Shown here: in pieces, positions 17,021 to 45,812 of the stretch
Position numbering within the stretch: the stretch's first letter is position 1
Layout of the letters: the number at the start of each line of letters is the position of its first letter
IMG/VR virus record: IMGVR_UViG_3300033076_001518
Coordinates: 1,526 to 65,525 of that record
Strand: one strand, 5' to 3'
Length of the DNA: 64,000 bases
From: a virus
Lineage: Duplodnaviria > Caudoviricetes
The notes under the pieces: generated by a model
The model's input: only the letters and a program-made list of their open reading frames with translations
Database searches by the model: none
What the model was told of the DNA's origin: nothing
Made by a program: the position numbers and the translations under genes

Positions 17021-17988
17021 GCGGCGAAGGGCCGCTGGCCAAACTCCTCACCGCGCTCATCAACGGCGCGAGCGCGCAGAAGAAACTCGAGCGCGCCGTC
17101 GGAGAAGAGTTCTACCGCGCAGCGGACGACGTGCCGGACATGTTCCGTCGAGGCCGTCGCTACGGACAGTCGCGAGCTGATCTCGAGAATCAGTTCGGGG
17201 TTCAATTCCGCGACTATCCGGGTTCGACCAGCGTCACCGTGCCCGGCGCGGCGGGTAAGGCTTCGATGGACTACGTGATGAGTCCCGGGCCAAGCGACAC
17301 CGCCACTTTTCCGCGGTACCGGCCGCGGGTCATGTTCGATACGTCTATGCTCGCTCCTCCAGGCACCTCTAGCGGCGCGGGTGCGGGGCGCGGAGCCTAC
17401 GCAGCGATGTTCGGTACTTTGCTCGAGAATCCCGAGCTCGTCAACATGGTCGATTCGACGGGGCTCACTCGCCGTAACGAGCACCGGCGCAACCTCAACC
17501 AAGCCGCAGCGCTACTACGCGCTCCGGAGCTGAGCCGTCAGATCGCACTCGATCCATTCCAGTTCGCTCACCAACGCAGGGTCGATCCAGAGCAGTTCAT
17601 GAGGCGATCCCCCGTAGAACAGGTCGGAGCACTGCAGGCAGAGGGCGCGCTGCAGACGATCCGCCGCATGGACGAAACGGCGCACGCAGCAAAAGGCAAA
17701 GCAGGAGGAGAGGAATTCGCAGCAAAGCTGCAGGAAGCTCGGCGTCGGGCTTTCCGAAGCTCCGACCCGGCAGATTTCAGCGTGCTGGCTACGCTACTGA
17801 GAGAAGGCGAGAGCCTCGGCATCCCCAAGAGTCTTTACGACACCATTGGCGAGGGCGCCCTCCGCCGCGCCGCCTTGGTGAGCGACATCGTCGATGGGCG
17901 CCCCGGGGCGCGCGCGAACCTGTACTCAGGTCTGGAGTTCGCTCGCGGCGGCGGCGTTCGCAACGGCCGCGGCTTCTTCCGCCGCTAG
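17017..17988 (+). CDS. hypothetical late protein ending in an FARGG motif
   Basis: 323-aa ORF with ATGA coupling; last gene of the + strand arm. Confidence 0.6.
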   Translation: MSGEGPLAKLLTALINGASAQKKLERAVGEEFYRAADDVPDMFRRGRRYGQSRADLENQFGVQFRDYPGSTSVTVPGAAGKASMDYVMSPGPSDTATFPRYRPRVMFDTSMLAPPGTSSGAGAGRGAYAAMFGTLLENPELVNMVDSTGLTRRNEHRRNLNQAAALLRAPELSRQIALDPFQFAHQRRVDPEQFMRRSPVEQVGALQAEGALQTIRRMDETAHAAKGKAGGEEFAAKLQEARRRAFRSSDPADFSVLATLLREGESLGIPKSLYDTIGEGALRRAALVSDIVDGRPGARANLYSGLEFARGGGVRNGRGFFRR

Positions 17989-18798
17989 ACGACGCGCCAG
18001 CAGTCCGCTCGCCAGCCGCGCGACGCGGCCGGTCTCGGCGTGAAGTCGGTAGGTCTCCGCGCCGTTGTAGCCCCCCGCCAGGTTCCAGACGATCGGGGTG
18101 CGGGTGGTCATGGCGGTCAGGAAGACCATCTCGTCACGGTCGCGCCAGTCGTTGTCGGTGAGGTAGCCCACCCCGTACGGGTCGTTCTCGTGGGCGTCGG
18201 CGCCTGCCTGGTACAGGATCAGGTTCCACGGGCCGTCGCGCAGCGCGGCGTCGATCCGGTGGAACCAGGTCGTGCGGCTCATGCGCGTCACGTTGCGGAT
18301 GTACGCGCCGAGCCCCAGCCTCGCGATCACGTCGTCGGTGCCGTCGCCGTAGTGGCCGTCGCCGTCGATGATCAGCACGCGCCCCACGATCGGGCAGCCG
18401 AGCGCGACGAGGGCCGCCAGCACGAGCCCGTTGAACGTGCAGTAGCCGTGGCCGTCCGCGAAGCCTGCGTGATGGAACCCGCTGACGGGCGCCAGGATGG
18501 GGTCGCCCGGGTTCTTCAGCGCCAGCTCGGCCGCGGTGCGCATGGCGCCGTTGGCGGCCAGGACGTGCGCCAGCGTACGCTGGTCCTGGGTGCCGAACCC
18601 GTTGCGGCGCGTGCCGTTGAGGACGCTGTCGACGTAGTCCATGCTGTGCACGCTCACCAGCTCTTCGCGGAACGCGGGCGGGGCGAGGGCTTCCTCGTCG
18701 TCCGGGCCGAAGATGGCGTCGACGACGCGCTTCGGCTTCGACAGCGAGATGAATGCTTCGGGCATGGCAGCGAGCGCAGGGTTCCAGGTGAACTTCAC
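17926..18798 (-). CDS. histone deacetylase (HDAC/AcuC/APAH) family Zn-dependent deacetylase
   Basis: GTG 18798 with AGGAGG, overlapping the upstream stop; SGFHHA, GYCTFN, IIDGDGHYGDGT, AGADAHENDP and AGGY motifs in canonical order. Confidence 0.9.
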   Translation of the reverse strand: MKFTWNPALAAMPEAFISLSKPKRVVDAIFGPDDEEALAPPAFREELVSVHSMDYVDSVLNGTRRNGFGTQDQRTLAHVLAANGAMRTAAELALKNPGDPILAPVSGFHHAGFADGHGYCTFNGLVLAALVALGCPIVGRVLIIDGDGHYGDGTDDVIARLGLGAYIRNVTRMSRTTWFHRIDAALRDGPWNLILYQAGADAHENDPYGVGYLTDNDWRDRDEMVFLTAMTTRTPIVWNLAGGYNGAETYRLHAETGRVARLASGLLARRLAAEEAAAVANAAAASELQT

Positions 18799-19184
18799 GG
18801 GTAGACCTCCTTGATGAAGGCGTTCAGTATATCCCGGATTTCGGCAAGTTCGTCGACGCGCCCCCAGCAGTAAAGCGCGCCGAGGATGCGCTTTTCTGCG
18901 GACGTCAGCTGGGGCCGCGCGGCGATGTAGCGGGCGAGCGGCGTCGTGCCGTGACGGTGGCGCCCGTGCGGATGGTAGCGCCCCTGGTTCACGACCTCGA
19001 TGAGCTTCTCGAGGTAGTGGCTGGCCTTCTCCAAGTCCTGGCGCCCGGCCTTCTTGGCGTGGCGGTCCAGGTACTTGGTGAACTGCCCCTCGAGGTAACT
19101 GAGGTTCGCATCGACGACGAAGTCCCAGTGCTGGTACGGGGCCGCGTAGTGGGTACCGCCCACCTGGCGTTCGTTGGCGCTCAT
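18795..19184 (-). CDS. DUF3310/SaV-like nucleotide-modification-associated protein
   Basis: RQVGGTHY...QHWDF...KYLDRHAKKAGRQDLEKASHYL. Confidence 0.75.
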   Translation of the reverse strand: MSANERQVGGTHYAAPYQHWDFVVDANLSYLEGQFTKYLDRHAKKAGRQDLEKASHYLEKLIEVVNQGRYHPHGRHRHGTTPLARYIAARPQLTSAEKRILGALYCWGRVDELAEIRDILNAFIKEVYP

Positions 19185-19735
19185 TCCATCTCCCTGAGTT
19201 CGGCGAGGATCGCACGCGCTGCGCCGAGGTCGAAGTTCGGGCGGTCGTCGTGCAGCCGGGCCAGCTTGGCGAAAGCGTTGCCGGTGTAGGCAAGATAGTT
19301 TTCGAAGATGGGGTCTACCAGCTTGTTGCCCATGAGCCGCTCGCGCCGGCAGAAGAGCAGCCCTTCGAGCTTGTCGACGAAATCGGCCACCGCCGCCTCG
19401 AAGCCAGAAAGCGGCGGCGGGACGTAGTCGACACGTTCACGCAGCAGCTCGGCCTCGACGTTGTCGATGTTGCCCTGACTGTGCGCATCGAGTCTTCGCT
19501 TGAAGTTGCCCGGGATGTCGCCCGTGAACCGCTCGCCTGCATCATGGCCCAGCAGGTGGAGAAGAAGCGCGCCCGGCGGCTCGTCGCGGTAGAACGTCGT
19601 CGCGAGCCAGATGAGGTTGTAGACGTGCTGCGCCACGTCCTGACGGCGGATGAGCCCGCCGAGCGAGGTGTGGTAGCGAAGGGTCTCGCCGCAGCGCAGA
19701 CGGCCCTCGACGAGTGCTAGCGAAAGGCTGCCCAT
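19181..19735 (-). CDS. HD-domain deoxynucleotide hydrolase (YfbR-like)
   Basis: RYHT...QDVAQH...HDAGERFTGDIP...DKLEG; ATG 19735 just after the upstream stop. Confidence 0.8.
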   Translation of the reverse strand: MGSLSLALVEGRLRCGETLRYHTSLGGLIRRQDVAQHVYNLIWLATTFYRDEPPGALLLHLLGHDAGERFTGDIPGNFKRRLDAHSQGNIDNVEAELLRERVDYVPPPLSGFEAAVADFVDKLEGLLFCRRERLMGNKLVDPIFENYLAYTGNAFAKLARLHDDRPNFDLGAARAILAELREME

Positions 19736-19737
19736 GA

Positions 19738-20760
19738 TCAGCGCACCTCCGCCGTCGGCACGGACTTCTTCAGCCGGCGCTCGAGCCACTCGTAGCCCGC
19801 CGCGTGCCAGAGGTAGACGTCCGGCGCCAGCAGCTGCATCGCCTCCTCGGTCTTGCCGGCCTTGTGCAGCTTGTGCGCCACGAACATCGGCAACGCCACC
19901 TCGTTCAGGAACGGGAACCGCCAGAACGGCGGCTCCGGGTCCTCAGGGTCCTTGAGGAACATTTTGAGCGCGCGATCGAACGTGTCCCAGTCCCGGGGCT
20001 CCGTGAAGAGGGGCGGGTTCTCGAGCTGATGCGTCCGCGTCTTGGGTTCGTCGGCCCCGTTCATGAGCTTGCGAACGTCGTCCCGATCGATGTACGCGTG
20101 GTAGTTCCAGCTCACCTGGGTGAACGTGCCGACCGCCTTGCCAATCGCGCAAGCCAGGTACTCCTGGAGGAAAGTGAAGTGGACGACGTTGGCTCCGTAG
20201 GCGCCCCAGACGATGTCGTTGGACCGGCACATGACCATCAGGTCCAGCAGCGCGCCGTTCACCCGCACGTACACGTGGGTGTTGCAGGGGACGTCGCGCG
20301 AGAAGTTCGGGTTGCTCAACATGCCGGCCGAGAGGTCCTTGGCGCCGTCCCACATCGCGATCACCACGCGACGCGAGCTCGGGTTGTTGCGCAGCTCGGA
20401 GATGACGTCGTAGAGCTGATCATGACCGAAGTGGTACCGCCACCGGTAGCCGTAGGCCCCGTTGAGCGTCTGCCCGTCGTCGGAGAACTCGGAGAACCGC
20501 GGCACGAAGCGCGTCAGGAACTCGAGGTCGTTTCGCCCCACCAGCATCCACAACGCTTCGAACAGGTGGAAGAACGGGTTGGCATCGCGGAGCGGCGAGA
20601 GCGCGACTCGATTGCGAGGCGCCGGGTAGACGGTCGTGACGGGCTGAGGCGAGACGAGCACGGTGCCGTTGCGGCTGGACTCTTTCGCGCCGGTGCTACC
20701 GAGCAGAGAGAGTCCTTGACGCAGCGCGTCGTCGGGGTTGAGGGCAGTGATGTGGAACAT
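19738..20760 (-). CDS. thymidylate synthase-fold enzyme, probable dUMP hydroxymethylase
   Basis: SRRVVIAMWD, DVPCN (catalytic Cys), RSNDIVWGAYGAN (Asn at the dUMP-specificity position), NYHAY; adjacent to a 5hmU-kinase-type gene. Confidence 0.85.
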   Translation of the reverse strand: MFHITALNPDDALRQGLSLLGSTGAKESSRNGTVLVSPQPVTTVYPAPRNRVALSPLRDANPFFHLFEALWMLVGRNDLEFLTRFVPRFSEFSDDGQTLNGAYGYRWRYHFGHDQLYDVISELRNNPSSRRVVIAMWDGAKDLSAGMLSNPNFSRDVPCNTHVYVRVNGALLDLMVMCRSNDIVWGAYGANVVHFTFLQEYLACAIGKAVGTFTQVSWNYHAYIDRDDVRKLMNGADEPKTRTHQLENPPLFTEPRDWDTFDRALKMFLKDPEDPEPPFWRFPFLNEVALPMFVAHKLHKAGKTEEAMQLLAPDVYLWHAAGYEWLERRLKKSVPTAEVR

Positions 20761-21633
20761 TCATACTCCTGGGTAAGTGGCGCGGGGGCGGCCCTCGCCT
20801 AGTCTAGCGCGTTCGTACTTGTCGAATTCGCACAAAGAGTGCTCGATCTCGCGCATCTCCAGCGCGGGCTTGAAGGGCCACGTCGGAAACAGTTTCGCGT
20901 AGACCGCGCGCATGGCGTCCAGTGCTCGGCCGTCGCTCATGGCGTTGCGAACCGGCAGGCCCATGAGCCGATTCAACCCCCGCTTGGCGCCGGGCCCCGC
21001 GTGGGCCCACCCGCGGGCGTCTTGTAGCCACGGCACTTTCTGCCCGTAGCGCGTGTAGCGCGCGTCGCACACTACCTCGTAGGCAGTGAACCCGCCCCAT
21101 CCGTGGTACGGCAGGAGCGCGGCGTGCGCCTGCTGCATGCTGCCGTACTCGAACGCCTCGCGGACCTTCTTTCGGTCCTGCCACACGCTATCTAGCACGA
21201 GCTTCGTGGTGAAGAACGCCTTGTCTTTCGGGTCGTCGGGCTTCGTACCGTGCGCATTGAGCATGTACGCGCCCGTGTACAGCTTCTCGCCGCGGGCCTG
21301 CCGCGCCAGCATGATCTTGCGGATCTCGCGCCAGTCGTAGTTGCCGCCCACCCGGAACTTGGCGCTCTCAGCGTAGATCTCGGCCAGCGTTTCGGGCCAG
21401 TTGATCTGTCGCGCCATGCAGAGCCGGAACCAGAGATTCGGGCAGTCGGCGTAGGGCTCGCGGATGTTCTCCCGAATCCAGATCGTGACCGTGTCCAGCT
21501 CGCGGTAGACGTTGCAGAACCGGTAGCGCTGCAGGACCGGGTCATCGGTCCAGGGCTTCGCTTCTCCGGCGTCGCGCTTCAGGTAGATGTTGTGCCGCTT
21601 CATCATGAAGCGGCGGAGCGGGTCGATCTTCAT
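20761..21633 (-). CDS. 5-hmdU DNA kinase helical domain / aGPT-Pplase1-family protein
   Basis: PWTDDPVLQRYRFCNVYRELDTVT, GFTAYEVVCD, GPGAKRGL, IEHSLCEFDKY.R motifs; ATG 21633 overlaps the upstream stop. Confidence 0.85.
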   Translation of the reverse strand: MKIDPLRRFMMKRHNIYLKRDAGEAKPWTDDPVLQRYRFCNVYRELDTVTIWIRENIREPYADCPNLWFRLCMARQINWPETLAEIYAESAKFRVGGNYDWREIRKIMLARQARGEKLYTGAYMLNAHGTKPDDPKDKAFFTTKLVLDSVWQDRKKVREAFEYGSMQQAHAALLPYHGWGGFTAYEVVCDARYTRYGQKVPWLQDARGWAHAGPGAKRGLNRLMGLPVRNAMSDGRALDAMRAVYAKLFPTWPFKPALEMREIEHSLCEFDKYERARLGEGRPRATYPGV

Positions 21634-22343
21634 TTGACCGCCCTTTCGGCGACGGCCATCTGCTCCGGCGTGCCGACAGGGTGCCAGCCGTTCACTTCGA
21701 CGGCGCCGCAGCCGAGAGACAGAAACGAACTCATAGACCGCTCGGAGCCGCCGAGCAAAACGGACGCAGCACGAGAGCGGAAGTAGCCGAAGCTCGGAAA
21801 TCCGTAGATCCCAGTGCCGACCAGCCAACTCCCGAGAGAAGGCTCGTAGTTGAACCCGCGTTTCTCGTTCATGTCGAGCGCGGAGCCCTCGCACACTCGA
21901 GCACAGCAGAAACTCGTCGCCGACAGCCAGACCGGCTGCGGAGCCACCGTGAGGAACTGGTCCCCGATCGGCAGCTGCTCGATCCACCCCCGCTGATCCG
22001 GCGCGTAGTAGTTGTCGCAGTCCATGAAGACCACGGGCTCGTCGGGCGGGAGATGCGCGCCGGCCAGCAGCGCGCTCGCCGCGGGGCCGGGCTGCGTGAT
22101 GCTGACGGGGACCATGTAGTCTTCTTCGAAGTACGGGGCGTCTTGACGGGCGAATTTCGCGACTTCCGGGGTCACGACGAAGACGAGACGCTCCGGCTTC
22201 ATCTCGATTGCCAGCTCGGCGGTGTGATCGAGCAGCGTCTGGCCTCTGAACGTCAGCAGCGGCTTCGGCGTCGTTACGCCTGCAGCCGAGAACCGTTCGC
22301 CGCGCCCGGCGGCCAGGATGACGACGTTAAAGGCGCGTGGCAT
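21630..22343 (-). CDS. sugar-phosphate nucleotidyltransferase (NTP_transferase family)
   Basis: VILAAGRGERF...TPKPLL, VFMDCD, GIYGF, WHPVGTPE. Confidence 0.85.
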   Translation of the reverse strand: MPRAFNVVILAAGRGERFSAAGVTTPKPLLTFRGQTLLDHTAELAIEMKPERLVFVVTPEVAKFARQDAPYFEEDYMVPVSITQPGPAASALLAGAHLPPDEPVVFMDCDNYYAPDQRGWIEQLPIGDQFLTVAPQPVWLSATSFCCARVCEGSALDMNEKRGFNYEPSLGSWLVGTGIYGFPSFGYFRSRAASVLLGGSERSMSSFLSLGCGAVEVNGWHPVGTPEQMAVAERAVK

Positions 22344-23052
22344 AGCTCATGACCTTTTCGTAGAACTCGGTTTGGCGAGGGAAGAACGGCGGCTCCTTGG
22401 CGGCTACTCGCACCGCGTGCGACACGAGGTAGTAGCCAAGGAGCGCCAGATCCGGCCGGTACTCACGCATTAGCCGCTCGACCTCGCGCCAAAGCGCGCG
22501 CGAACGAGCGCCGTCGGTGTCGAATCCGAGTGCGCTGAACATCATCTTCGACAGATCGACTTCGAACTCCGGCGGCGCTGCGCGCGGGGAGAAATCGATG
22601 AGACGGACGCCATCGCGGGTCCAGACTGCGTTGGACAGCGTCGCGTCGCCATGAACGAAGGCGTTCTGCGAGATGGGCAGCCCCGCCATGCTCGCGTAGT
22701 GGCGCCCGAGCGCCGACAGGAGCGAGGTGCGGAGCCCGTTGCGGACTTCGGAGCGCTCCATCTGCGTTGTCACGTAGCGATGGTACGCCTCCCGCGTGCA
22801 GGCGGCCCGCGGCGAGTTCTCGCGCCAGAGCCGCTCGAAGCAGTGAGCGAAGTCGGTGATCGAGCCGAGCGGGATGGGCGCCATCGCCAGCGGCATCGCG
22901 AAGCTCGTCCGCGACATCGGCTCCACCGCCATGGCAACGGTAGCCGGCGCGGCCACCATGATGCGGTACTGCGCCTCGCACTCGGCCACGGACTCGAACG
23001 TCTTCAGCACGCTCAGTCGCGCGCCGCTGGGTCTCTTCTCACTGCTGCTCAT
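22327..23052 (-). CDS. APH / choline-kinase-fold phosphotransferase
   Basis: HGDATLSN catalytic loop, LIDF metal-binding motif, DLSKM. Confidence 0.75.
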   Translation of the reverse strand: MSSSEKRPSGARLSVLKTFESVAECEAQYRIMVAAPATVAMAVEPMSRTSFAMPLAMAPIPLGSITDFAHCFERLWRENSPRAACTREAYHRYVTTQMERSEVRNGLRTSLLSALGRHYASMAGLPISQNAFVHGDATLSNAVWTRDGVRLIDFSPRAAPPEFEVDLSKMMFSALGFDTDGARSRALWREVERLMREYRPDLALLGYYLVSHAVRVAAKEPPFFPRQTEFYEKVMSYATRL

Positions 23053-23848
23053 TGATGCCGCTCTCCAGCGCTTTCTTCCACGAAACGACCACCTCCTTGC
23101 GAGGGGTGCCCTTGTAGTTCTTGTCGACCACGCGCACGAAGCCAGGGTGAAGCGCGGCGAGCTTGTGCGCGGCGGCGTCGCTGGCGGAGACCGTTCTCTC
23201 GCCGCTACAGCCGCCGGGAGCGCCGTAGGCCCCCGGGGCGACGCACCAGTCGTAGCACTGAATGCTCTCTTGACCGGCGCGCAGCAGCGTGAGCGCCATG
23301 TGGAAGTCCTCGCGGAAAGCGACAGCGTTGAACTTGAACTTCATCTTCACCAGCTCTTTCCGCCGGTAGCCGAAGGCGTGCATGAGCCGATTGGCGCCGC
23401 GCTTCCAGTCGAGAGGCTCCAGGTCATTGCCGAAGCGGCTGCTGATGCCGACGGACGAATGGTCGGAGTTCAGCCCGAACTCCAGCTCTTCGAACAGCCG
23501 CTGGACGCCTCCGTCCGTCACGTAGTCGAGGCTCAGCGTCTTGTGCCCAGGGCGGGCCTTCCAGCGCCCGTCGCGGTAGTCGCGGTAGTGCATCTCGCAC
23601 CGCTTGTAGAAGACCATGTCGTCGTCCAGCATGAAGACGTCGTCCTTGACGTTCTCCAGAATCCACTGGCGTTTGTCGGCGATGGTCTTGACCGGCGCGT
23701 TCTTCACGTGCCGATGGGTCCGCCGCAGAGCTTCGTGCTCGGCTGCGTCAGACGTGATGAGAAGAACCTCCCGGCGCAGCGCGTCCGGGAGGGCGGCCAG
23801 AGTCGTCTGCTTGGCGACTCGACCGTAGGTTGGGATGACAATCCGCAC
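23039..23848 (-). CDS. GT-A fold glycosyltransferase (TET-associated TAGT/GREB1-like)
   Basis: IVIPTYGR, KRQWI, FMLDDD (DxD), REDFHMALTLL, GGCSGER. Confidence 0.8.
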   Translation of the reverse strand: MRIVIPTYGRVAKQTTLAALPDALRREVLLITSDAAEHEALRRTHRHVKNAPVKTIADKRQWILENVKDDVFMLDDDMVFYKRCEMHYRDYRDGRWKARPGHKTLSLDYVTDGGVQRLFEELEFGLNSDHSSVGISSRFGNDLEPLDWKRGANRLMHAFGYRRKELVKMKFKFNAVAFREDFHMALTLLRAGQESIQCYDWCVAPGAYGAPGGCSGERTVSASDAAAHKLAALHPGFVRVVDKNYKGTPRKEVVVSWKKALESGINEQQ

Positions 23849-23891: not shown

Positions 23892-24596
23892 CTACTTGAC
23901 TTCGATGAACTCCATCTTGACGTCCCAGTTCACGTCGGCCCGGGTGCCGCCGGCCGCGATGTACTCGTCGACGGTCATGCCGTTCTTGTACAGCGCGAAG
24001 CGGGTCGCGGCGGCCGCACGCTTCGGGTTCTCCTTGACGAGGATCTTGATCTTGGCCGAGCCGTCGATGTTCGGCTTGCGGCCGCGCGTGCCGGCCTCCT
24101 CGGCGGCGGGGGCCTTCTTGGCGGCGGGCTTGTCGGCGGACTTCTTCGCGGCGGGCTTGTCGGCCGCCTTCTTCGCGGGGGTTGCGGCCTTCTTGGCCGC
24201 GGAGGTCTTGGCGGATGCCATGATGTCGTCTTCTCCTGGTTCGGTGACGGGGTTGGTGGGGGTAGACGCTGGAATGTCGACGTCCGGCAGCTCGACCTTG
24301 CGATCGAACTTGCCGTCCGCGATTCGGCCGAGTAGCGTACGAACCTCGGCTGAAACTTTGGGTGAGTAGCCGTCCTCGACGCTCAGGTAGCGCTGGGCGG
24401 CACGGCCGGGGGCGTAGTCGGTCTTCTCGAAGCGGCGGAAGAACGCGTCCTGCGACTCGCGCTGAACGACGAGCTCGACGGGCGAGTACGCCACGAAGCG
24501 CACGTACTTGCGGTCGACGCCGAGCAGGATGCAGCTGTGGCGACCCGCGTCGCGGTAGACGGCGCACTCGTCTTTGTGAACGTCGAATTTGTTCAC
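23892..24596 (-). CDS. protein with Lys/Ala-rich histone-H1-like linker and conserved C-terminal domain (paralogue of 44798-45430)
   Basis: GTG 24596 overlaps the upstream stop; AAKKAATPAKKAADKPAAKK followed by NPKR...RFALYKNGMTVDEYIAAGG. Confidence 0.7.
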   Translation of the reverse strand: MNKFDVHKDECAVYRDAGRHSCILLGVDRKYVRFVAYSPVELVVQRESQDAFFRRFEKTDYAPGRAAQRYLSVEDGYSPKVSAEVRTLLGRIADGKFDRKVELPDVDIPASTPTNPVTEPGEDDIMASAKTSAAKKAATPAKKAADKPAAKKSADKPAAKKAPAAEEAGTRGRKPNIDGSAKIKILVKENPKRAAAATRFALYKNGMTVDEYIAAGGTRADVNWDVKMEFIEVK

Positions 24597-24787
24597 AGCT
24601 GACCCTCCGCGATTGCCTTGGCGATCAACGCCAGGAGCTTCTCCGCCGGCATCTTGGCGAACTTGGCCAGCGGCTCCAGCTCCAGGCACATAGCGTAGCG
24701 CGCGTTCTCGTCCGCCATCATGATGGCGTCGGCACCGTGCTTCTCGATGAAGCGAGCGCGCTGCTCTTTGAACTGATCCATGTTCAT
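24593..24787 (-). CDS. hypothetical protein
   Basis: Short ORF coupled to the downstream gene. Confidence 0.55.
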   Translation of the reverse strand: MNMDQFKEQRARFIEKHGADAIMMADENARYAMCLELEPLAKFAKMPAEKLLALIAKAIAEGQL

Positions 24788-30054: not shown

Positions 30055-30593
30055 AGACTCACCCGTGCGATCTCGGAGCCTTCCATGAAGTGGGATGACA
30101 AAGCGCCGCAAGGCACCACGTCGCTCGTGAAGCGGCAAGAGACGGCGATGATCGTCTCAGTGGGCGGCGGTGGCGGTGGCGCGAGGCCATCCTCTTTCGC
30201 GCATTTCATTTCGTGCTCCCAAGCCCAGAGCGAACGCTTTGGGTCGCACGAAACTTCGTACTCGTCTAGTCGCGGGTGGCGCTGCCAGCAGATGGTCCCG
30301 TGGGGAGCCGGCCAGCCGGGGCGCAGCGAGTCCAGGAAAAGTTCCAGGAGTCGCGCGATCTGAGCATCCTTCGGCTTCGCCGGGTCGACTCGCGCAGCAA
30401 GACCGAACGAAGAGTAGACGTACTCCTCGCCGTTGATCTTCGTCGACCACGTGGTGCCGACTTCCGAATGTACGTAAAGGAAGAGCCGTTCGATCGCACG
30501 CTTCAGATCGTTCAGCTGGCGCGCGCGGGCGGCAAAGGGTGCGGGGCGGGGGTCGTCGACAACGTCGAGCGTCATGTTCGGCGACATCCTCAT
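30051..30593 (-). CDS. hypothetical protein
   Basis: ATGA/GTGA coupling on both sides. Confidence 0.55.
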   Translation of the reverse strand: MRMSPNMTLDVVDDPRPAPFAARARQLNDLKRAIERLFLYVHSEVGTTWSTKINGEEYVYSSFGLAARVDPAKPKDAQIARLLELFLDSLRPGWPAPHGTICWQRHPRLDEYEVSCDPKRSLWAWEHEMKCAKEDGLAPPPPPPTETIIAVSCRFTSDVVPCGALSSHFMEGSEIARVSL

Positions 30594-31099
30594 TTCGGCC
30601 CCCAGATCCGGGCGTCCTCCACGTCGTCCGGCTCGCAAGCGTCCAGCAGCACCTGGGCCACGTTGGGCGGACGGTAGTTCGGGCCTTTCACGACCTTGCC
30701 GTGACCGTCGTGGATCGGGCGCCCATCGGCGCCGAGCTTGGACATGTTGGCGCGGTGGATCTCGGCCACAACCGCCTCGGCCGGGAACCCGAAGACGAGG
30801 TTCGCCCCGGCGCAGACGTAGTCGATGTCGCCCAGCGCGTCGGCCGCCGCGGGTAGATTCACTGGCGCCGCCGGGTCGATCGAGAACGCCGACAGCACCT
30901 CCTTCACCTTCGCCTCGAAGTCCTCTTCCGAGCCTTCGGTGAGCGGCGCCACGCCGGAAGCCCGCCCGAACTCCAGAACCTCCTCCAGGAGGAGCCGAAA
31001 ACGGAGCTCACGCTCCTTGGCCGAGGGGGTGCGGGGGACGTGATGAACGGGATGGGAAAACGCGAGGTGGAAGAGCCTGACGAGTTTGATGGTGTGCAT
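30590..31099 (-). CDS. MazG-like / PRA-PH-like dNTP pyrophosphatase
   Basis: RFRLLLEEVLE, DALGDIDYV, EIHRANMSK...GKVVKGPNY. Confidence 0.85.
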   Translation of the reverse strand: MHTIKLVRLFHLAFSHPVHHVPRTPSAKERELRFRLLLEEVLEFGRASGVAPLTEGSEEDFEAKVKEVLSAFSIDPAAPVNLPAAADALGDIDYVCAGANLVFGFPAEAVVAEIHRANMSKLGADGRPIHDGHGKVVKGPNYRPPNVAQVLLDACEPDDVEDARIWGPK

Positions 31100-39335: not shown

Positions 39336-40895
39336 TCACTTCGCCGGCATCAGGACCAGCTCAACCTTCGCGCGGGTGGCCGCCACGTAGCACAGGTTGT
39401 CCTCCTGCGCACGTTCCCAGTCCAACCGGGCCCAGGGCGAGGCGCCCGTCTCGAGCCACACCACGCGGCCCCACTCGCGGCCCTTGGCCTTGTGAATCGA
39501 GCTGAACGTGACCTGCGGGCGGGGCGTGCCTTCGGCGGTGTCGGCGAAGAGGGCGTCGATCTCGGCCAGCAGGTCCGCCACCGCCCCGGCGCCGCGGGTC
39601 TTCTCGCGCACGCGGGCGATCAGCACATTCAGGCAGGTGACCTTGTCCTCGAGCGTTACCGCCTGGGACTCCTTGTCCTTGGCGCGCAGCTTCGCGGTCT
39701 CCGACTCGGCGTAGGTCTCCAGGTAGGAGGCGAGCTTCGTCAGCGACTCGGTCTTCCAACGGGTCGCGAGGTCCTTCAGCCCTTGGCCGATCTCGCGCCC
39801 CTCGATCCGCGCGGGAATGCCGGCGGCGATGAGCGCGTACACGTGCGTCACGAGCGGAGCGTTGAACCGGCACAGCACCGCGTCGCCCGGCCGGGCTTCC
39901 TTGGCCAGGTCCTTGATCCCCGCGTTGCGCACCACGCCTTCGGGCGCGGTCGCGTGCGCTTGGATGTGATCGACCCAGGTCTGCGCGAACTCGACCACCT
40001 TCTTCGGGCAGCGGTACGTCACCGTCAGCGGCAGGCGGATGGCGTTGGTGCGCGCGGCGATCAGGTCCAGCGCGTCGAAGTCGGCGCCCGTGAACCCGTA
40101 GATGGCCTGGTGCGGGTCGCCCACCGCGACCAGGCGGCCGGACTTCTTCAGCATCCGCAGCGCCAGCTCGCGGCGCGTGGCGTTGGTGTCTTGGGCCTCG
40201 TCGACGAGCACCCAGTCGTGGGCCCAGACGCGGGCGTTGTGCACCAGCGGGGCGTAGATCATGTCGTCGTAGTCGATCACGCCGCTGCAGGTCTCGTTCG
40301 AGATGCGCAGGACGCGGCTCGCCAGGTCAACCGCCTCGGTGGTGCGGTCGGTGCCGCGGAGCTGATCGCGCGGAATCTCGAGGTTGAAGTGCTCGATGAG
40401 GCCGTCCCACGCCTCGCGGGTCTCGGCCTGGAGGACGTGAAGCCCGGCCTGCTTGGCGAGGCTCACCAGGCGCAGCACCGGGGCCTCCAGCGGGCGGAGC
40501 GCCGGGTTGGCGCCGCTGAACGCGCTGCGGAAGATGTCGCGGCACTTGGCGCCCTCGACCTTCACGTTCGGGGCGGCGCGGCGCCAGAAGCGGAAGCCCG
40601 CGGCGTGGAACGTGCTGACGTCGACCTTCGCGGCGACGTTCGCCACGCGGGAGCGGATCTCCTCGGCGATCGCCTTGTTGTAGGCGCCGAAGAAGACGTC
40701 GCCGCGCATGAGCCCGAGCGCGTGGACCAGCGTGGTGGTCTTGCCGGCGCCGGCCACCGCCTCCAGGACGCAGCTGCCGCTGCCGTTCTGAACCCAGCCG
40801 AAGAAGTCGGCCTGCTGGGGGCTGGGGGTGAAGACGGCGGGGGCCTTGGCGGCGCCGCCAAGCTTGGCGAGACGATCGGCGGAGAGGGCGGTCAC
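39336..40895 (-). CDS. UvrD/Rep-like superfamily 1 helicase
   Basis: AVAGAGKTT, STFHA, LVDEAQD, VGDPHQAIYGF, TYRCP, SSIHKAKGREW, NLCYVAATRAK. Confidence 0.92.
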   Translation of the reverse strand: MTALSADRLAKLGGAAKAPAVFTPSPQQADFFGWVQNGSGSCVLEAVAGAGKTTTLVHALGLMRGDVFFGAYNKAIAEEIRSRVANVAAKVDVSTFHAAGFRFWRRAAPNVKVEGAKCRDIFRSAFSGANPALRPLEAPVLRLVSLAKQAGLHVLQAETREAWDGLIEHFNLEIPRDQLRGTDRTTEAVDLASRVLRISNETCSGVIDYDDMIYAPLVHNARVWAHDWVLVDEAQDTNATRRELALRMLKKSGRLVAVGDPHQAIYGFTGADFDALDLIAARTNAIRLPLTVTYRCPKKVVEFAQTWVDHIQAHATAPEGVVRNAGIKDLAKEARPGDAVLCRFNAPLVTHVYALIAAGIPARIEGREIGQGLKDLATRWKTESLTKLASYLETYAESETAKLRAKDKESQAVTLEDKVTCLNVLIARVREKTRGAGAVADLLAEIDALFADTAEGTPRPQVTFSSIHKAKGREWGRVVWLETGASPWARLDWERAQEDNLCYVAATRAKVELVLMPAK

Positions 40896-40927
40896 TTCGA
40901 GAACTCCGGTGGAGTGGTTGGTGCGTG

Positions 40928-40994
40928 AATTATGCCGCGGTTTTGCGCAGCACGGGGAGCAATCCCTACTGCGCAACCGGGCTATTTCGGCAGC
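40928..40994 (-). promoter_or_regulatory. phage promoter cassette, copy A
   Basis: Minus strand CTGCCGAAATAGCCCGG-N5-CAGTAGGGATT...CCCCGT-N17-CATAAT; upstream of the helicase gene. Confidence 0.65.
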
Positions 40995-41278
40995 TGGTCG
41001 CGCAGGTCGGAGCAGCAGCCCGGGCAGAGTCGGCCGGACCAACCACGTAGGCTGATGACCGTGATCTCCTCGACGCGCTCGTTGCAGGCGTTGCAGCGAC
41101 CCTCGTCGACGCCGCGCCCCTGGTAGACCCGGATGTCGCGCTCGCCCATCTCGGGCGAGAACCCAAGCTGCCGCGCCACCCACACGGGGTCGGACGCGGT
41201 GCGCTCGGCGACGTTCTGGATGGAGCGGCGCACGCCGTGTCGCCCGCGCTCTTCCTGGTACATCTCGAAGAGGGTCAC
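40982..41278 (-). CDS. hypothetical protein
   Basis: 98 aa with CNAC...CPGC; ends in LPK*. Confidence 0.55.
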   Translation of the reverse strand: MTLFEMYQEERGRHGVRRSIQNVAERTASDPVWVARQLGFSPEMGERDIRVYQGRGVDEGRCNACNERVEEITVISLRGWSGRLCPGCCSDLRDQLPK

Positions 41279-41709
41279 AGCTCACCTCGCGCCAGTCGCC
41301 AGCCGAGCTTGACCTGCTCCAGCGCGTCGGCGCCGTACTTGAAGCCGCGCGCCTCCATCTTCGCCCAGGTCCGCGTGAACGCGTCGTCGGAGGTCTCGGG
41401 TGGGGTTGGCTCCGGCTTCTTCGACTGCGCCGCGCTCGGCACCTCGATCTCCGGAACGGGCACGAGCGGCACAGTCGCGGTGTCCTCACCGAGGAGGAGT
41501 TTCTTGGCCGTGTTCGGCAGCGTCAACGAAGCCGAGTAGCGCGGCTGGGGCGCCCCACGCAGCCCTCCCATCTTGTCGGGCCAGACCCAGGCGCGGCGCC
41601 CGCCTTTGTTGACGCCGGTATAACACAGGCGCGTGCTGCGTGGCAGCTCGACTCGCACGAAGCCGCGGGCTTCGAGCGCGCGGATGATCCGTTCCGTTTT
41701 CGTCGTCAT
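41275..41709 (-). CDS. hypothetical protein
   Basis: 144-aa ORF, coupled. Confidence 0.55.
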   Translation of the reverse strand: MTTKTERIIRALEARGFVRVELPRSTRLCYTGVNKGGRRAWVWPDKMGGLRGAPQPRYSASLTLPNTAKKLLLGEDTATVPLVPVPEIEVPSAAQSKKPEPTPPETSDDAFTRTWAKMEARGFKYGADALEQVKLGWRLARGEL

Positions 41710-44493: not shown

Positions 44494-44801
44494 TGCTCGC
44501 CACCTCCATCTTCCAGAGTGAACAGGTACTCGTCGCGGATCGCGGTCAGGGTCGGCGCGCCCTCGACGCTCCACGCCTCGGGCTTGACCTTCGGGTCCAG
44601 CGTCACCGGCACCACGTAGGTGGCGTCCGCGCCGCGGTACACGTGCAGCACCTGGGCCCCCTCCGCAGGGCGGAGCCCGGTGCCGATCTGCTGCGGGGCG
44701 ACGGTCGCGACCAGCGAGGTCAGCTCGCGCTGGCTCGCCGGGTCCGTGACGATGAACTCCCGCACGCGCACCCCGGTGTCGTAGGGGCTGCGCGCGCTCA
44801 C
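44490..44801 (-). CDS. hypothetical protein
   Basis: GTGA coupling; strong codon bias. Confidence 0.55.
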   Translation of the reverse strand: MSARSPYDTGVRVREFIVTDPASQRELTSLVATVAPQQIGTGLRPAEGAQVLHVYRGADATYVVPVTLDPKVKPEAWSVEGAPTLTAIRDEYLFTLEDGGGEQ

Positions 44802-45430
44802 TTCGGCTCCGCGGTCTTGATCCAGCCCATCTTCTGGTCCCACACCACGTCGCGGCGCTGGCCGCCCGCGGCGATGTAGGCGGCGACGGTCATGCCGTTG
44901 CGGTAGAGCGCGTAGCGGTCGGCCGCGGTGCCGCGCTTGGGGTTGTCGCCCTTGTGCACCACCGTGATGATCGCGTCCTCGGTGAAGCTGGCGCGACCAC
45001 CGCCGGCCTTCTTGGGCGCGGCGGGCTTGGCGCTCTTCGCGGCGGGCTTGGCGCTCTTCGCGGCGGGCTTGGCGGTCGACGGGTGAGCGCCCTGCGACGC
45101 GAGGACGCGCGCCATGTGCTCGGCGGCGGAGGGCGTCGCGGGCTTCTTGACCGTGAGCATGTCGCCGCTGCCGCCCAGGTTGAAAGCGAGCTTCCCGGCA
45201 GGCTTCTCGGCCTTCTTGATCAGGGCCTCGACACGCGGGTTGCCCGCGGGGTCCTTCGGCTCGCCCTCGGCCTTCGCGGCGATCAGCGCGGTGGCGCGCT
45301 CGACGCCCTTGGCGCGGGTCTCGAACTTCTTGATCGGGGGCTTGCCGCTGTGCTCGTTGACGAACGCCACGAGCTCCGCCATCGACGCGGCGGCGACTTC
45401 GACCTTGGTGGACTTGAGAGTCAGGGACAT
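44798..45430 (-). CDS. Lys/Ala-rich histone-like protein (paralogue of 23892-24596)
   Basis: AKPAAKSAKPAAKSAKPAAPKK, then NPKRGTAADRYALYRNGMTVAAYIAAGG. Confidence 0.7.
   Translation of the reverse strand: MSLTLKSTKVEVAAASMAELVAFVNEHSGKPPIKKFETRAKGVERATALIAAKAEGEPKDPAGNPRVEALIKKAEKPAGKLAFNLGGSGDMLTVKKPATPSAAEHMARVLASQGAHPSTAKPAAKSAKPAAKSAKPAAPKKAGGGRASFTEDAIITVVHKGDNPKRGTAADRYALYRNGMTVAAYIAAGGQRRDVVWDQKMGWIKTAEPK
45018..45074 (-). repeat. 21-nt tandem repeat (about 2.7 copies) encoding KSAKPAA
   Basis: gcggcgggcttggcgctcttc twice, plus a partial third copy. Confidence 0.85.
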
Positions 45431-45489
45431 GATGCTGGGGCCTCGCTCGCCCGGGACAGAGGGGTAGTTGAGTTCTCTGTCGCTGGCGC

Positions 45490-45551
45490 AATTATGCTCC
45501 ATCTGCAGGATCTGCGGGAAATCCCTACTGATTTGCAGGGTTTTACGGCAG
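45490..45551 (-). promoter_or_regulatory. phage promoter cassette, copy C (more diverged)
   Basis: Minus strand CTGCCGTAAAACCCTG-N5-CAGTAGGGATT-TCCCGC-N17-CATAAT. Confidence 0.6.
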
Positions 45552-45812
45552 GTCGCCGAACTTGGTCCTTAGCTTGAACTCACTCGGCGGGCGATGGCGC
45601 TGGTTCGGGCTGGGTGCGCGCTTGCGCTCATACAGGATGAGCTCCTCCGCTAGCTGCTGCAGCCGATTGCGCAGCGTCGCGGTGTCTTCGGTGAAGCCGG
45701 CTTCCGTGAGCAGGTCGTTGGCCTCCGTTGCGGTGATCCAGCCGCGCCCCTCCAGCAGCTTGAGCAACCGAGCGATGCGCTTCGTGTGCGCCGAGGAGCC
45801 GAGTCTAGCCAC
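45543..45812 (-). CDS. putative winged-helix DNA-binding protein
   Basis: RIARLLKLLEGRGWITATEA...TATLRNRLQQLAEELIL; start uncertain (45812 or 45824). Confidence 0.5.
   Translation of the reverse strand: MARLGSSAHTKRIARLLKLLEGRGWITATEANDLLTEAGFTEDTATLRNRLQQLAEELILYERKRAPSPNQRHRPPSEFKLRTKFGDLP

Follow-up and report, generated by a model that had tools for sequence, protein, structure and literature searches.

Phages RB69, DLP3, and HY126 make uridine diphosphate (UDP)-arabinose for DNA arabinosylation, which gives arabinosyl-5-hydroxycytosine, by means of AfhE and the HAD phosphatase AfhF (PMC13326640). AfhE joins a MurU/LicC-like nucleotidyltransferase domain to a kinase domain (PMC13326640). 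The PaMx11 pathway, which is of the ADDT/FAD-enzyme/kinase type, has been reconstituted in vitro (PMC8989533). A metavirome survey also lists GT-A-type glycosyltransferases next to ThyS and 'APH phosphotransferase' genes (bioRxiv 10.1101/2023.12.21.572611). Here we describe a locus of eight genes, g1 to g8, on a 64,000-nucleotide stretch of DNA (hereafter the window), which comprises bases 1526-65525 of one 65,525-bp virus record, IMGVR_UViG_3300033076_001518 (Caudoviricetes). With a probability of roughly 0.6, the products of g1-g5 would replace thymine with 5-hydroxymethyluracil (5hmU) and then glycosylate it using a nucleoside diphosphate (NDP)-sugar made by the phage itself.

According to this model, g5 would make 5hmdUMP from dUMP. 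The g6 enzyme, together with a MazG-like enzyme encoded upstream, would remove canonical thymidine nucleotides, such that 5hmdU enters DNA. The g2 kinase would phosphorylate a small hydroxyl compound, most likely a sugar, and g3 would combine the sugar phosphate with a nucleoside triphosphate to form the NDP-sugar. Finally, g1 would attach the sugar to 5hmU in DNA through its hydroxymethyl group, giving a base-J-like O-glycosyl-5hmU. The steps assigned to g1-g3 are all drawn from folds, motifs, and a swap of gene cassettes between related phages. We put at slightly better than even the odds that DNA of this phage carries O-glycosyl-5hmU, a phage counterpart of base J reached through a pre-replicative dUMP hydroxymethylase and a phage-made NDP-sugar. 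Coordinates of all features are collected in Table 1.

g5 carries the signature of a dUMP hydroxymethylase

The g5 protein matched the Thymidylat_synt profile (1.4e-20) and phrog_5131 (9e-99), and it was 42% identical to the thymidylate synthase (TS) homologue of an M6-like phage. Its best match in the PDB was the CMP hydroxymethylase MilA (3.5e-20), and E. coli ThyA matched at 2.6e-9. When g5 was aligned to E. coli ThyA (1jg0), DVPC stood opposite LAPC and GANVV opposite PFNIA, and RSND kept Asp 169. In ThyA numbering, Asp replaces L143, and C146, D169, and N177 are kept. Published rules for TS homologues hold that L143D/E indicates a hydroxymethylase, N177 indicates specificity for dUMP, and D169N (with N177D) indicates a 5-hydroxy-dCMP synthase (PMC13326640). 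With Asp143, C146, D169, and N177, g5 therefore carries the dUMP-hydroxymethylase signature, and it is predicted to hydroxymethylate dUMP to 5hmdUMP. An earlier note on this DNA had remarked on an Asn at the dUMP-specificity position of a TS-fold enzyme, and the alignment places this residue at ThyA N177. Two other assignments were rejected: an ordinary thymidylate synthase, given Asp at position 143 and a hydroxymethylase as the best match, and a 5-hydroxy-dCMP synthase, given that D169 and N177 are kept.

Two alternative cassettes occupy the same slot in related phages

We gathered relatives through the histone deacetylase (HDAC) encoded by g8 and the glycosyltransferase encoded by g1, and compared their gene orders. 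The identical eight-gene order was found in the window and in at least four further contigs (L003, L041, L042, and L044), with protein identities of 33-91%. Its retention in other contigs implies that the locus is a conserved unit and not a chance juxtaposition. The slot between a Lys/Ala-rich protein and the HMUDK_hel gene (g4) holds either of two gene sets in syntenic phages. The first, comprising a TAGT glycosyltransferase, a kinase-like protein, and an NTP_transf protein, is present in the window and the same four contigs. The second, present in L043, L045, and L047, comprises ADDT (aGPT-Pplase clade 2) and a DAO-type FAD enzyme. It is accompanied by an AAA_33 P-loop kinase in L043 and L045, in place of which L047 has two genes without a family call. 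An acetyltransferase occurs in addition in L045, and a low-molecular-weight phosphatase (LMWPc) in L043. These three contigs keep the Lys/Ala-rich protein, HMUDK_hel, TS, HD, DUF3310-like, and HDAC genes.

The glycosyltransferase cassette thus stands in the slot of a proven 5hmU-decorating cassette, which argues that g1-g3 decorate 5hmU and is the strongest evidence available. Judged by gene content and order, the locus consists of three parts: a swappable cassette (g1-g3), a 5hmU core (g4-g5), and a constant block (g6-g8). Because g4, g7, and g8 are kept whatever the decoration chemistry, their function would be one that phages with replaced bases share.

Variants of this arrangement were also observed. 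In L048 (7001-12782), the genes run TAGT, a 228-amino-acid (aa) open reading frame (ORF), a HAD_2 hydrolase, NTP_transf_3, HMUDK_hel, TS, HD, and DUF3310, with no HDAC. The 228-aa ORF has no detectable similarity to g2, and the HAD insertion between it and the nucleotidyltransferase recalls the AfhE/AfhF route. The 6-kb contig L050 (894-5635) carries HMUDK_hel, a 333-aa ORF, a faintly sulfotransferase-like ORF, TAGT, and a 274-aa ORF. In L002 (7064-10897) and in phage AXL3 (L051; 17362-21396), the slot is occupied by a methyltransferase, a MazG-like/PRA-PH gene, an ORF, a 264-aa thymidylate synthase, and a dCMP deaminase. An HDAC gene follows this set in L002 but not in AXL3. This set suggests that the lineage has yet another, distinct route of nucleotide modification.

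g1 is a candidate DNA glycosyltransferase

The g1 protein matched TAGT (PF20691) with 36.1 bits (cut-off 27.5; 8.5e-9) over residues 1-85 and phrog_842 over its full length (2.7e-42). It has a DxD-type motif, LDDDMVF with DDD at residue 75, of the kind that binds metal and NDP-sugar in GT-A enzymes. A search of a library of 1.84 billion proteins gave 1317 cluster representatives as relatives. A peptide-pattern search of viral contigs with g1 confirmed no relative, a miss that reflects a limit of the method because the representative search gave 1317 relatives. Sequence searches of the PDB with g1, g4, g6, and g7 gave no meaningful match. Sampled g1 relatives adjoin HMUDK_hel and/or TS-like genes. 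Both sampled distant relatives on contigs of informative length (L048 and L050) adjoin HMUDK_hel; the remaining sampled contig (L049), just 2.1 kb in length, shows neither HMUDK_hel nor a TS-like gene. Association with TET/JBP, which characterizes TAGT, is replaced here by a TS homologue as the source of the hydroxyl handle. From its family and context, we propose that g1 transfers a sugar to 5hmU in DNA.

It could be argued that the target of g1-g3 is not DNA but, for example, virion proteins or a glycan on the host surface, and that the DNA contains only plain 5hmU. After all, the acceptor of g1 is a deduction, and about 65% of the glycosyltransferase-containing viral contigs in a published survey lack a neighboring base-modification gene. 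However, g1 passes the TAGT model and lies within an operon of replication and nucleotide genes, in the slot where sister phages have their 5hmU-decorating cassettes. The neighborhoods of L048 and L050 point the same way, with the short L049 contig showing neither gene. We consider a non-DNA target very unlikely.

g2 and g3 are a putative donor-making pair

A kinase beside a sugar-1-phosphate nucleotidyltransferase is the usual route of sugar activation. The g3 protein matched NTP_transf_3 (2.8e-13, 50.8 bits, cut-off 27) and NTP_transferase (3.5e-6, 27.2 bits, cut-off 21.2), and it has the GxGxR...PKPL signature in the form of AAGRGERF at 11 and PKPLL at 26. There were weak matches to GlmU, AglF, and MurU models, and no NCBIfam equivalog was reached. 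Its PDB matches included mannose-1-P guanylyltransferase and MurU (4y7t). It also matched phrog_3980 and, weakly, phrog_4098, the RB69 family. On the strength of these motifs and profiles, g3 is proposed to make the NDP-sugar donor.

The AlphaFold model of g2 (predicted local distance difference test, pLDDT, 93.3) shows a bilobal kinase fold with an HxDxxxxN loop (HGDATLSN at 134) and a DFx motif (IDFS at 152), both conserved in 13 homologues. Structural comparison of the model (VIA) gave Z 16.5 with APH(4)-Ia (root-mean-square deviation, rmsd, 3.4; 223 residues aligned), Z 15.1 with LicA, Z 15 with choline kinases, and Z 14.8 with maltokinase. The top match with Foldseek was LicA (4r77). The family is small, with only 13 relatives among 5.8 billion clustered proteins, and neither g2 nor g3 had a tblastn match in 50,697 phage records. 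The model and its motifs lead us to propose g2 as a sugar kinase feeding g3.

g4 resembles amino acid:DNA transferases

Residues 6-279 of the 290 in g4 matched HMUDK_hel (PF18723) at 7.5e-52 (176.9 bits, cut-off 25), and the protein was 47% identical to Sonora gp42. The earlier note had described a 5hmU-kinase-type helical protein; the profile match stands, but the domain belongs to aGPT-Pplase clade 1 and is not a kinase domain. An invariant IEHSLCEF in g4 aligns with IETILCKY, which contains the essential Cys and Glu, of four amino acid:DNA transferases (AADTs), at an hhalign E of 0.0035 but a probability of only 9%. The structure closest to the g4 model (pLDDT 88.7) was PaMx11 gp46, the 5-PmdU glycinyltransferase (Z 11.3, rmsd 4.2, 224 residues). 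Helix-hairpin-helix (HhH) DNA glycosylases followed at Z 7-10.5, after which scores fell to Z 2.7. In its Cys/Glu motif and HhH-type fold, g4 resembles AADTs, and this is a resemblance rather than membership. Pairing or fusion with a P-loop 5hmU-DNA kinase characterizes clade 1, and in SP10 the clade 1 domain is fused to a DNA kinase (PMC5889632). In the genome studied here, the sole ORF of at least 80 aa with a Walker A motif is a UvrD-like helicase, and no tblastn match to the Sonora kinase was found in the window. The gene occurs with either cassette, and similarity among g4 proteins does not track cassette type. The clade 1 protein of M6, gp55, is dispensable in vitro (PMC8989533).

Since the AADT-like g4 sits in a genome without a P-loop 5hmU-DNA kinase, we considered whether g2 could be a non-P-loop 5hmU-DNA kinase that replaces 5-HMUDK. 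Under this alternative, g2 would feed g4, which would substitute or reduce the activated methylene, for example back to thymine at some sites, while g3 and g1 would glycosylate other 5hmU sites from host sugar-1-phosphates. Each alternative cassette has exactly one kinase, AAA_33 or APH-like, which would fit such an exchange, as would the Glu/Cys motif that is essential in AADTs (PMC8989533), the closeness of PaMx11 gp46 in structure, and the fusion in SP10. However, none of the matched APH-fold kinases is described as acting on DNA, and the pairing of kinase and nucleotidyltransferase has direct precedent in donor synthesis. The position of the HAD gene in L048, between the 228-aa ORF and the nucleotidyltransferase, fits the processing of sugar phosphates, and M6 can dispense with gp55 in vitro. 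On balance, a DNA kinase role for g2 appears unlikely.

The HDAC gene accompanies several kinds of base replacement

The catalytic motifs of g8 are all intact: (S)GFHHAG at 107, DGDGHYGDG at 145, GADAH at 199, and AGGYN at 241. By the motif rules for class IV HDACs (PMC11532494), it belongs to this class, with a His-His dyad, Asp/His/Asp zinc ligands, the tyrosine of GGY, and no RPP before HH. Its best PDB matches were in clade A, namely VcHdaH (9gkv, 1e-18) and chrHDAC11-1/A (9rje, 6.7e-16), and the clade B structure 9gz5 matched at 2.2e-6. Clade A class IV HDACs are inactive on acyl-lysine peptides, are thought to act on non-peptide substrates, and have no known substrate (PMC13325672).

Only one weak, partial match to g8 was found by tblastn in the 50,697 phage records. 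Among viral contigs found through g8, an HD gene directly precedes the HDAC gene in 37 of 39. The largest HDAC lineage has the order PurZ, MazZ-like, HD, HDAC, a Z-base module, in all 22 contigs with at least 3 kb of upstream sequence. The window's glycosyltransferase had no tblastn match in at least 22 PurZ/HDAC loci. The HDAC block is also present in the amino-acid-cassette phages L043, L045, and L047, and in L002 the HDAC gene follows the methyltransferase, MazG-like, thymidylate synthase, and dCMP deaminase genes. We rejected the ORF before the HDAC gene in L002 as an HD gene, its alignment showing the HAE...PCxxC motif of dCMP deaminases. In L048, the TAGT cassette, HD, and DUF3310 genes occur without an HDAC gene. 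In a maximum likelihood tree, HDACs from PurZ contexts formed one clade (support 100/100) and those from TS contexts the other. Phages with glycosyltransferase and AADT cassettes were interleaved within the latter, and glycosyltransferase-cassette phages were monophyletic in 0% of bootstrap trees. The PurZ lineage (L004-L040, e.g., L020:7269-10717) is a large group of viral contigs of 55-60 kb. Downstream of the polymerase, four genes stand in a row in these contigs: those for a 371-aa PurZ-like adenylosuccinate synthetase, a MazZ-like dATP/dGTP pyrophosphohydrolase, an HD protein at the DatZ position, and the class IV HDAC.

These distributions bear on the claim in the earlier note that the HDAC acts on the sugar by removing an N-acetyl group. 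The sugar would then be an N-acetylhexosamine (HexNAc), deacetylated by g8 on DNA to give a cationic amino-sugar base. There is something to be said for this: g8 is an intact amidohydrolase whose gene is translationally coupled to the operon, non-peptide substrates are suspected for its clade (PMC13325672), HexNAc transfer to 5-hydroxymethylcytosine (5hmC) is an established activity of phage GT-A enzymes, and g3 has weak GlmU and MurU matches. However, the same HDAC family follows HD in at least 22 PurZ contigs without a match to the window's glycosyltransferase, accompanies three amino-acid cassettes, occurs in L002, and is missing from L048 despite its cassette. The tree likewise mixes glycosyltransferase- and AADT-cassette phages. 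The known sugar de-N-acetylases are of the LmbE/PIG-L, CE4, LpxC, and NagA types, and we know of none with the HDAC fold. Because the HDAC gene stayed in place while cassettes changed, we think de-N-acetylation of the sugar by g8 quite unlikely. As far as gene content and phylogeny show, g8 is a constant gene of the phage lineage and not a dedicated sugar de-N-acetylase.

The steady pairing of HD and HDAC genes in base-replacing phages is a new and testable association. In the literature searched, we found no report of HDAC genes in Z-genome or thymidine modification clusters. The g6 protein matched phrog_6047 (8e-19), the 'dATP triphosphohydrolase' phrog_7076 (2.8e-5), and, below the cut-off, the YfbR-like family (22.7 bits; cut-off 25.9). 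Its metal site (H37, H64-D65, D121) is conserved, and the alignment of homologues favors an ATG start at 19735 over GTG at 19789. By single-linkage clustering of blastp matches, g6 falls in one family with the HD genes of 37 of the 39 HDAC loci, including those adjoining PurZ and MazZ. From its family and metal site, g6 is proposed to clear canonical dTTP/dTMP. The neighboring g7 protein scored 22.1 bits against DUF3310 (cut-off 24) and 2.3e-31 against phrog_5839, was 43% identical to Sonora gp46, and fell in DUF3310/SaV-like clusters of the Atlas (score 0.95, TM 0.88). Its DUF3310 region matches several PHROGs labeled 'nucleotide kinase', labels that tie the domain to nucleotide kinases of the T7 gp1.7 type.

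One explanation for the pairing is that g6 and g8 form a separate two-gene device of base-replacing phages. Its substrate could be an amide derived from a nucleotide or of the polyamine type, or else a host factor, and its role would lie in pool control, DNA packaging, or counter-defense rather than decoration. The adjacency of HD and HDAC in 37 of 39 loci is consistent with such a device, as is the occurrence of the pair alongside PurZ-MazZ and alongside both kinds of 5hmU cassette, glycosylation and amino-acid. The HDACs of the window and the PurZ lineage are also more alike (about 40% identity) than their DNA polymerases (about 25%). Nevertheless, gene order in a phage lineage can persist without a functional link, HD occurs without HDAC in L048, and HDAC occurs without HD in L002. 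We therefore hold the two-gene device as a tentative proposal, somewhat short of an even chance. More doubtful is the joint proposition that the phage DNA carries O-glycosyl-5hmU and that the class IV HDAC and DatZ-family HD protein are a base-replacement accessory acting on a non-protein amide tied to non-canonical DNA.

Weighing the glycosylation of 5hmU

That g1-g5 would replace thymine with 5hmU and glycosylate it agrees with the lack of any other decorating enzyme. The complete genome had no match to ADDT/aGPT-Pplase2 (PF18724, at E up to 1), radical SAM, GNAT, Tet_JBP, or PurZ, and it had no small P-loop kinase. The absence of recognizable enzymes of the known amino-acid pathways had already been remarked upon, and it extends to ADDT, radical SAM, and GNAT across the complete genome. 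The earlier note had predicted a new sugar-modified thymidine with subsequent loss of an N-acetyl group. Its first half, a self-activated donor used on 5hmU, is favored by the g5 signature, the conserved trio of genes, and the cassette slot; removal of N-acetyl by the HDAC is not. Profile searches that it proposed came out above cut-off for TAGT, NTP_transferase, HMUDK_hel, and Hist_deacetyl, and below cut-off for APH.

Several observations count against this reading. The g2 protein reached 17.2 bits (E 0.0046) against Pfam APH, under the cut-off of 23.2. Its fold scores with LicA, APH, maltokinase, and fructosamine kinase are alike (Z 14-16.5), such that a sugar is not separable from choline or ethanolamine as the substrate. 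The complete genome has no match to a HAD_2 phosphatase or a SIS (arabinose-5-phosphate) isomerase. Without these enzymes, either g2 would have to phosphorylate the anomeric carbon, or the missing steps must be supplied by the host. For g1, the acceptor is assigned from family and context, and TAGT is a family defined by association with TET/JBP in a genome that has no Tet_JBP. The g4 protein keeps an AADT-like catalytic motif in a genome without a P-loop 5hmU-DNA kinase, and the model leaves g4 unexplained. Sequence does not fix the specificity of g6, which may be dTTP, dTMP, or another nucleotide. Finally, the phage is an uncultured metagenomic genome known from its genes.

Genome context

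The 65,525-bp record carries direct terminal repeats and is estimated to be 100% complete, and the GC content of the window is ~65%. Among cultured phages, Pseudoxanthomonas phage PW916 and Stenotrophomonas phage AXL3 have the most similar polymerases (42% identity). The eight ORFs lie on the minus strand, spanning 23848 down to 17926, at the 3' end of a long block of replication genes. Junctions from g1 through g8 measure -14, -17, -4, 0, +2, -4, and -4 nucleotides. Between 16800 and 25000, neither strand showed a sigma-70-like promoter, and the minus strand had no terminator-like site. Coordinates, strand, and junctions all agree with the eight tightly packed minus-strand genes that had been described, in the order given.

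Before g1, the minus-strand block runs ligase, primase, DNA-binding protein, MazG-like enzyme, family-A polymerase, two exonucleases, SNF2-type helicase, and Lys/Ala-rich protein. The MazG-like gene, noted previously at 30590, is confirmed by its match to phrog_671, and the enzyme probably helps to shape the deoxynucleoside triphosphate pool. The Lys/Ala-rich protein had no match in Pfam or PHROG. Its syntenic position is kept in L003 and L041-L047 with either cassette, at 33-84% identity (tblastn). The strict [AG]xxxxGK[ST] pattern is absent from both the primase-helicase and the SNF2 helicase. Two sister phages encode an Acb2/Tad1-hairpin protein, of the anti-CBASS/anti-Thoeris sponge family, between the two exonuclease genes (L042:72-599 and L043:1-173), and no ORF is present at this position in the window.

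Table 1. Features of the window, with positions numbered from its first base and the basis for each assignment
Feature	Position	Strand	Length (aa)	Basis
g1, TAGT-family glycosyltransferase	23039-23848	-	269	PF20691, phrog_842, DDD motif
g2, APH/choline-kinase-fold small-molecule kinase (predicted)	22327-23052	-	241	AlphaFold model and motifs
g3, sugar-1-phosphate nucleotidyltransferase-like	21630-22343	-	237	NTP_transf_3, NTP_transferase
g4, aGPT-Pplase clade 1 (HMUDK_hel, PF18723)	20761-21633	-	290	Profile match
g5, TS-fold predicted dUMP hydroxymethylase	19738-20760	-	340	Thymidylat_synt, phrog_5131, residue signature
g6, HD phosphohydrolase	19181-19735	-	about 184	phrog_6047, H...HD...D
g7, DUF3310/SaV-like small protein	18795-19184	-	129	phrog_5839, Atlas
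g8, class IV (HDAC11-like) zinc amidohydrolase	17926-18798	-	290	PF00850 Hist_deacetyl, 9e-26
Lys/Ala-rich, histone-H1-like protein	23892-24689 (also listed: 44798-45568)	-	265	Directly upstream of g1
MazG-like nucleotide pyrophosphohydrolase	30590-31099	-		phrog_671, 3.2e-33
UvrD-like helicase	39336-41489		717	Sole genome ORF of at least 80 aa with canonical Walker A

Implications

If the pathway operates as predicted, it would constitute a sugar-modified thymine replacement in a bacterial virus, adding to the chemistries available for escaping restriction and other DNA-targeting defenses. Further gains would be new DNA glycosyltransferases and, for labeling 5hmU, a compact cassette of three genes that combines donor synthesis and transfer. 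The structure of the locus, in which a decoration cassette (sugar or amino acid) is plugged into a constant 5hmU core, offers matched natural controls for experiments. The connection of a class IV HDAC and a DatZ-like HD protein to phages in which Z takes the place of A, or 5hmU that of T, gives the orphan clade a biological context, and it could lead to the first physiological substrate for clade A HDAC11 enzymes. Two results go beyond the earlier note: the exchange of cassettes at the locus, and the occurrence of the HD-HDAC pair in Z-genome phages as well.

Comparison with known systems

The window shares features with the thymidine-modifying phages M6, PaMx11, and ViI (PMC5889632, PMC8989533), in that the TS-like enzyme (42%) and the aGPT-Pplase clade 1 protein (47%) are common to M6-like phages. 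It differs from them in having a glycosyltransferase cassette instead of the AADT, P-loop kinase, PLP, radical SAM, FAD, and acetyltransferase enzymes. Sister phages of the window carry a PaMx11-type cassette in the same slot. Z-genome phages with PurZ, MazZ, and DatZ are related through g6, whose HD family occupies the DatZ position in PurZ clusters, and clade A class IV HDACs (PMC11532494, PMC13325672) through g8; the window has no PurZ match.

The phage GT-A enzymes associated with 5mYOX/TET (PMC8256090, bioRxiv 10.1101/2023.12.21.572611) belong to the same Pfam family as g1. Characterized TAGT members act on 5hmC produced by a methyltransferase and TET, whereas the ThyS-linked class is uncharacterized. 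The window's genome had no Tet_JBP match, and cytosine methyltransferases were not searched for. The predicted product is, like the glucosylated 5hmC of T-even phages and base J, an O-glycosyl 5-hydroxymethylpyrimidine, and its linkage of base to sugar is that of base J. T4 differs in using host UDP-glucose and GT-B enzymes on 5hmC, whereas the donor in the window is apparently phage-made. Base J differs in that thymine is oxidized in DNA by JBP, whereas 5hmU in the window would be made before replication by the TS homologue. The literature searched held no report of chemically identified O-glycosyl-5hmU in any phage.

RB69, DLP3, and HY126 offer a direct parallel in overall design. The earlier note had stated that no characterized pathway has this gene set, a statement overtaken by the AfhE/AfhF logic of these phages (PMC13326640). 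Pairwise comparison of g3 with RB69 gp53 gave a distant match (E 2e-6, 24% identity over 115 aa), and that of g2 with RB69 gp52 a weak one around the catalytic loop (E 0.044). There are several differences. The RB69-type base is 5-hydroxycytosine (N177D, D169N), as opposed to uracil with a hydroxymethyl group (N177 and D169 kept) in the window, and the kinase and nucleotidyltransferase, joined in AfhE, are the separate genes g2 and g3. The arabinosyltransferases of RB69 and DLP3 match the GT-B type, whereas g1 is of the TAGT type with a DxD motif. The RB69 type also employs a HAD phosphatase and an arabinose-5-P isomerase, neither of which has a match in the window's genome. We therefore rejected the arabinose route as such. 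In RB69, DLP3, and HY126, as predicted for the window, a TS homologue makes the hydroxyl handle, the phage makes the NDP-sugar donor, and a glycosyltransferase acts on DNA; the logic of the pathway is known.

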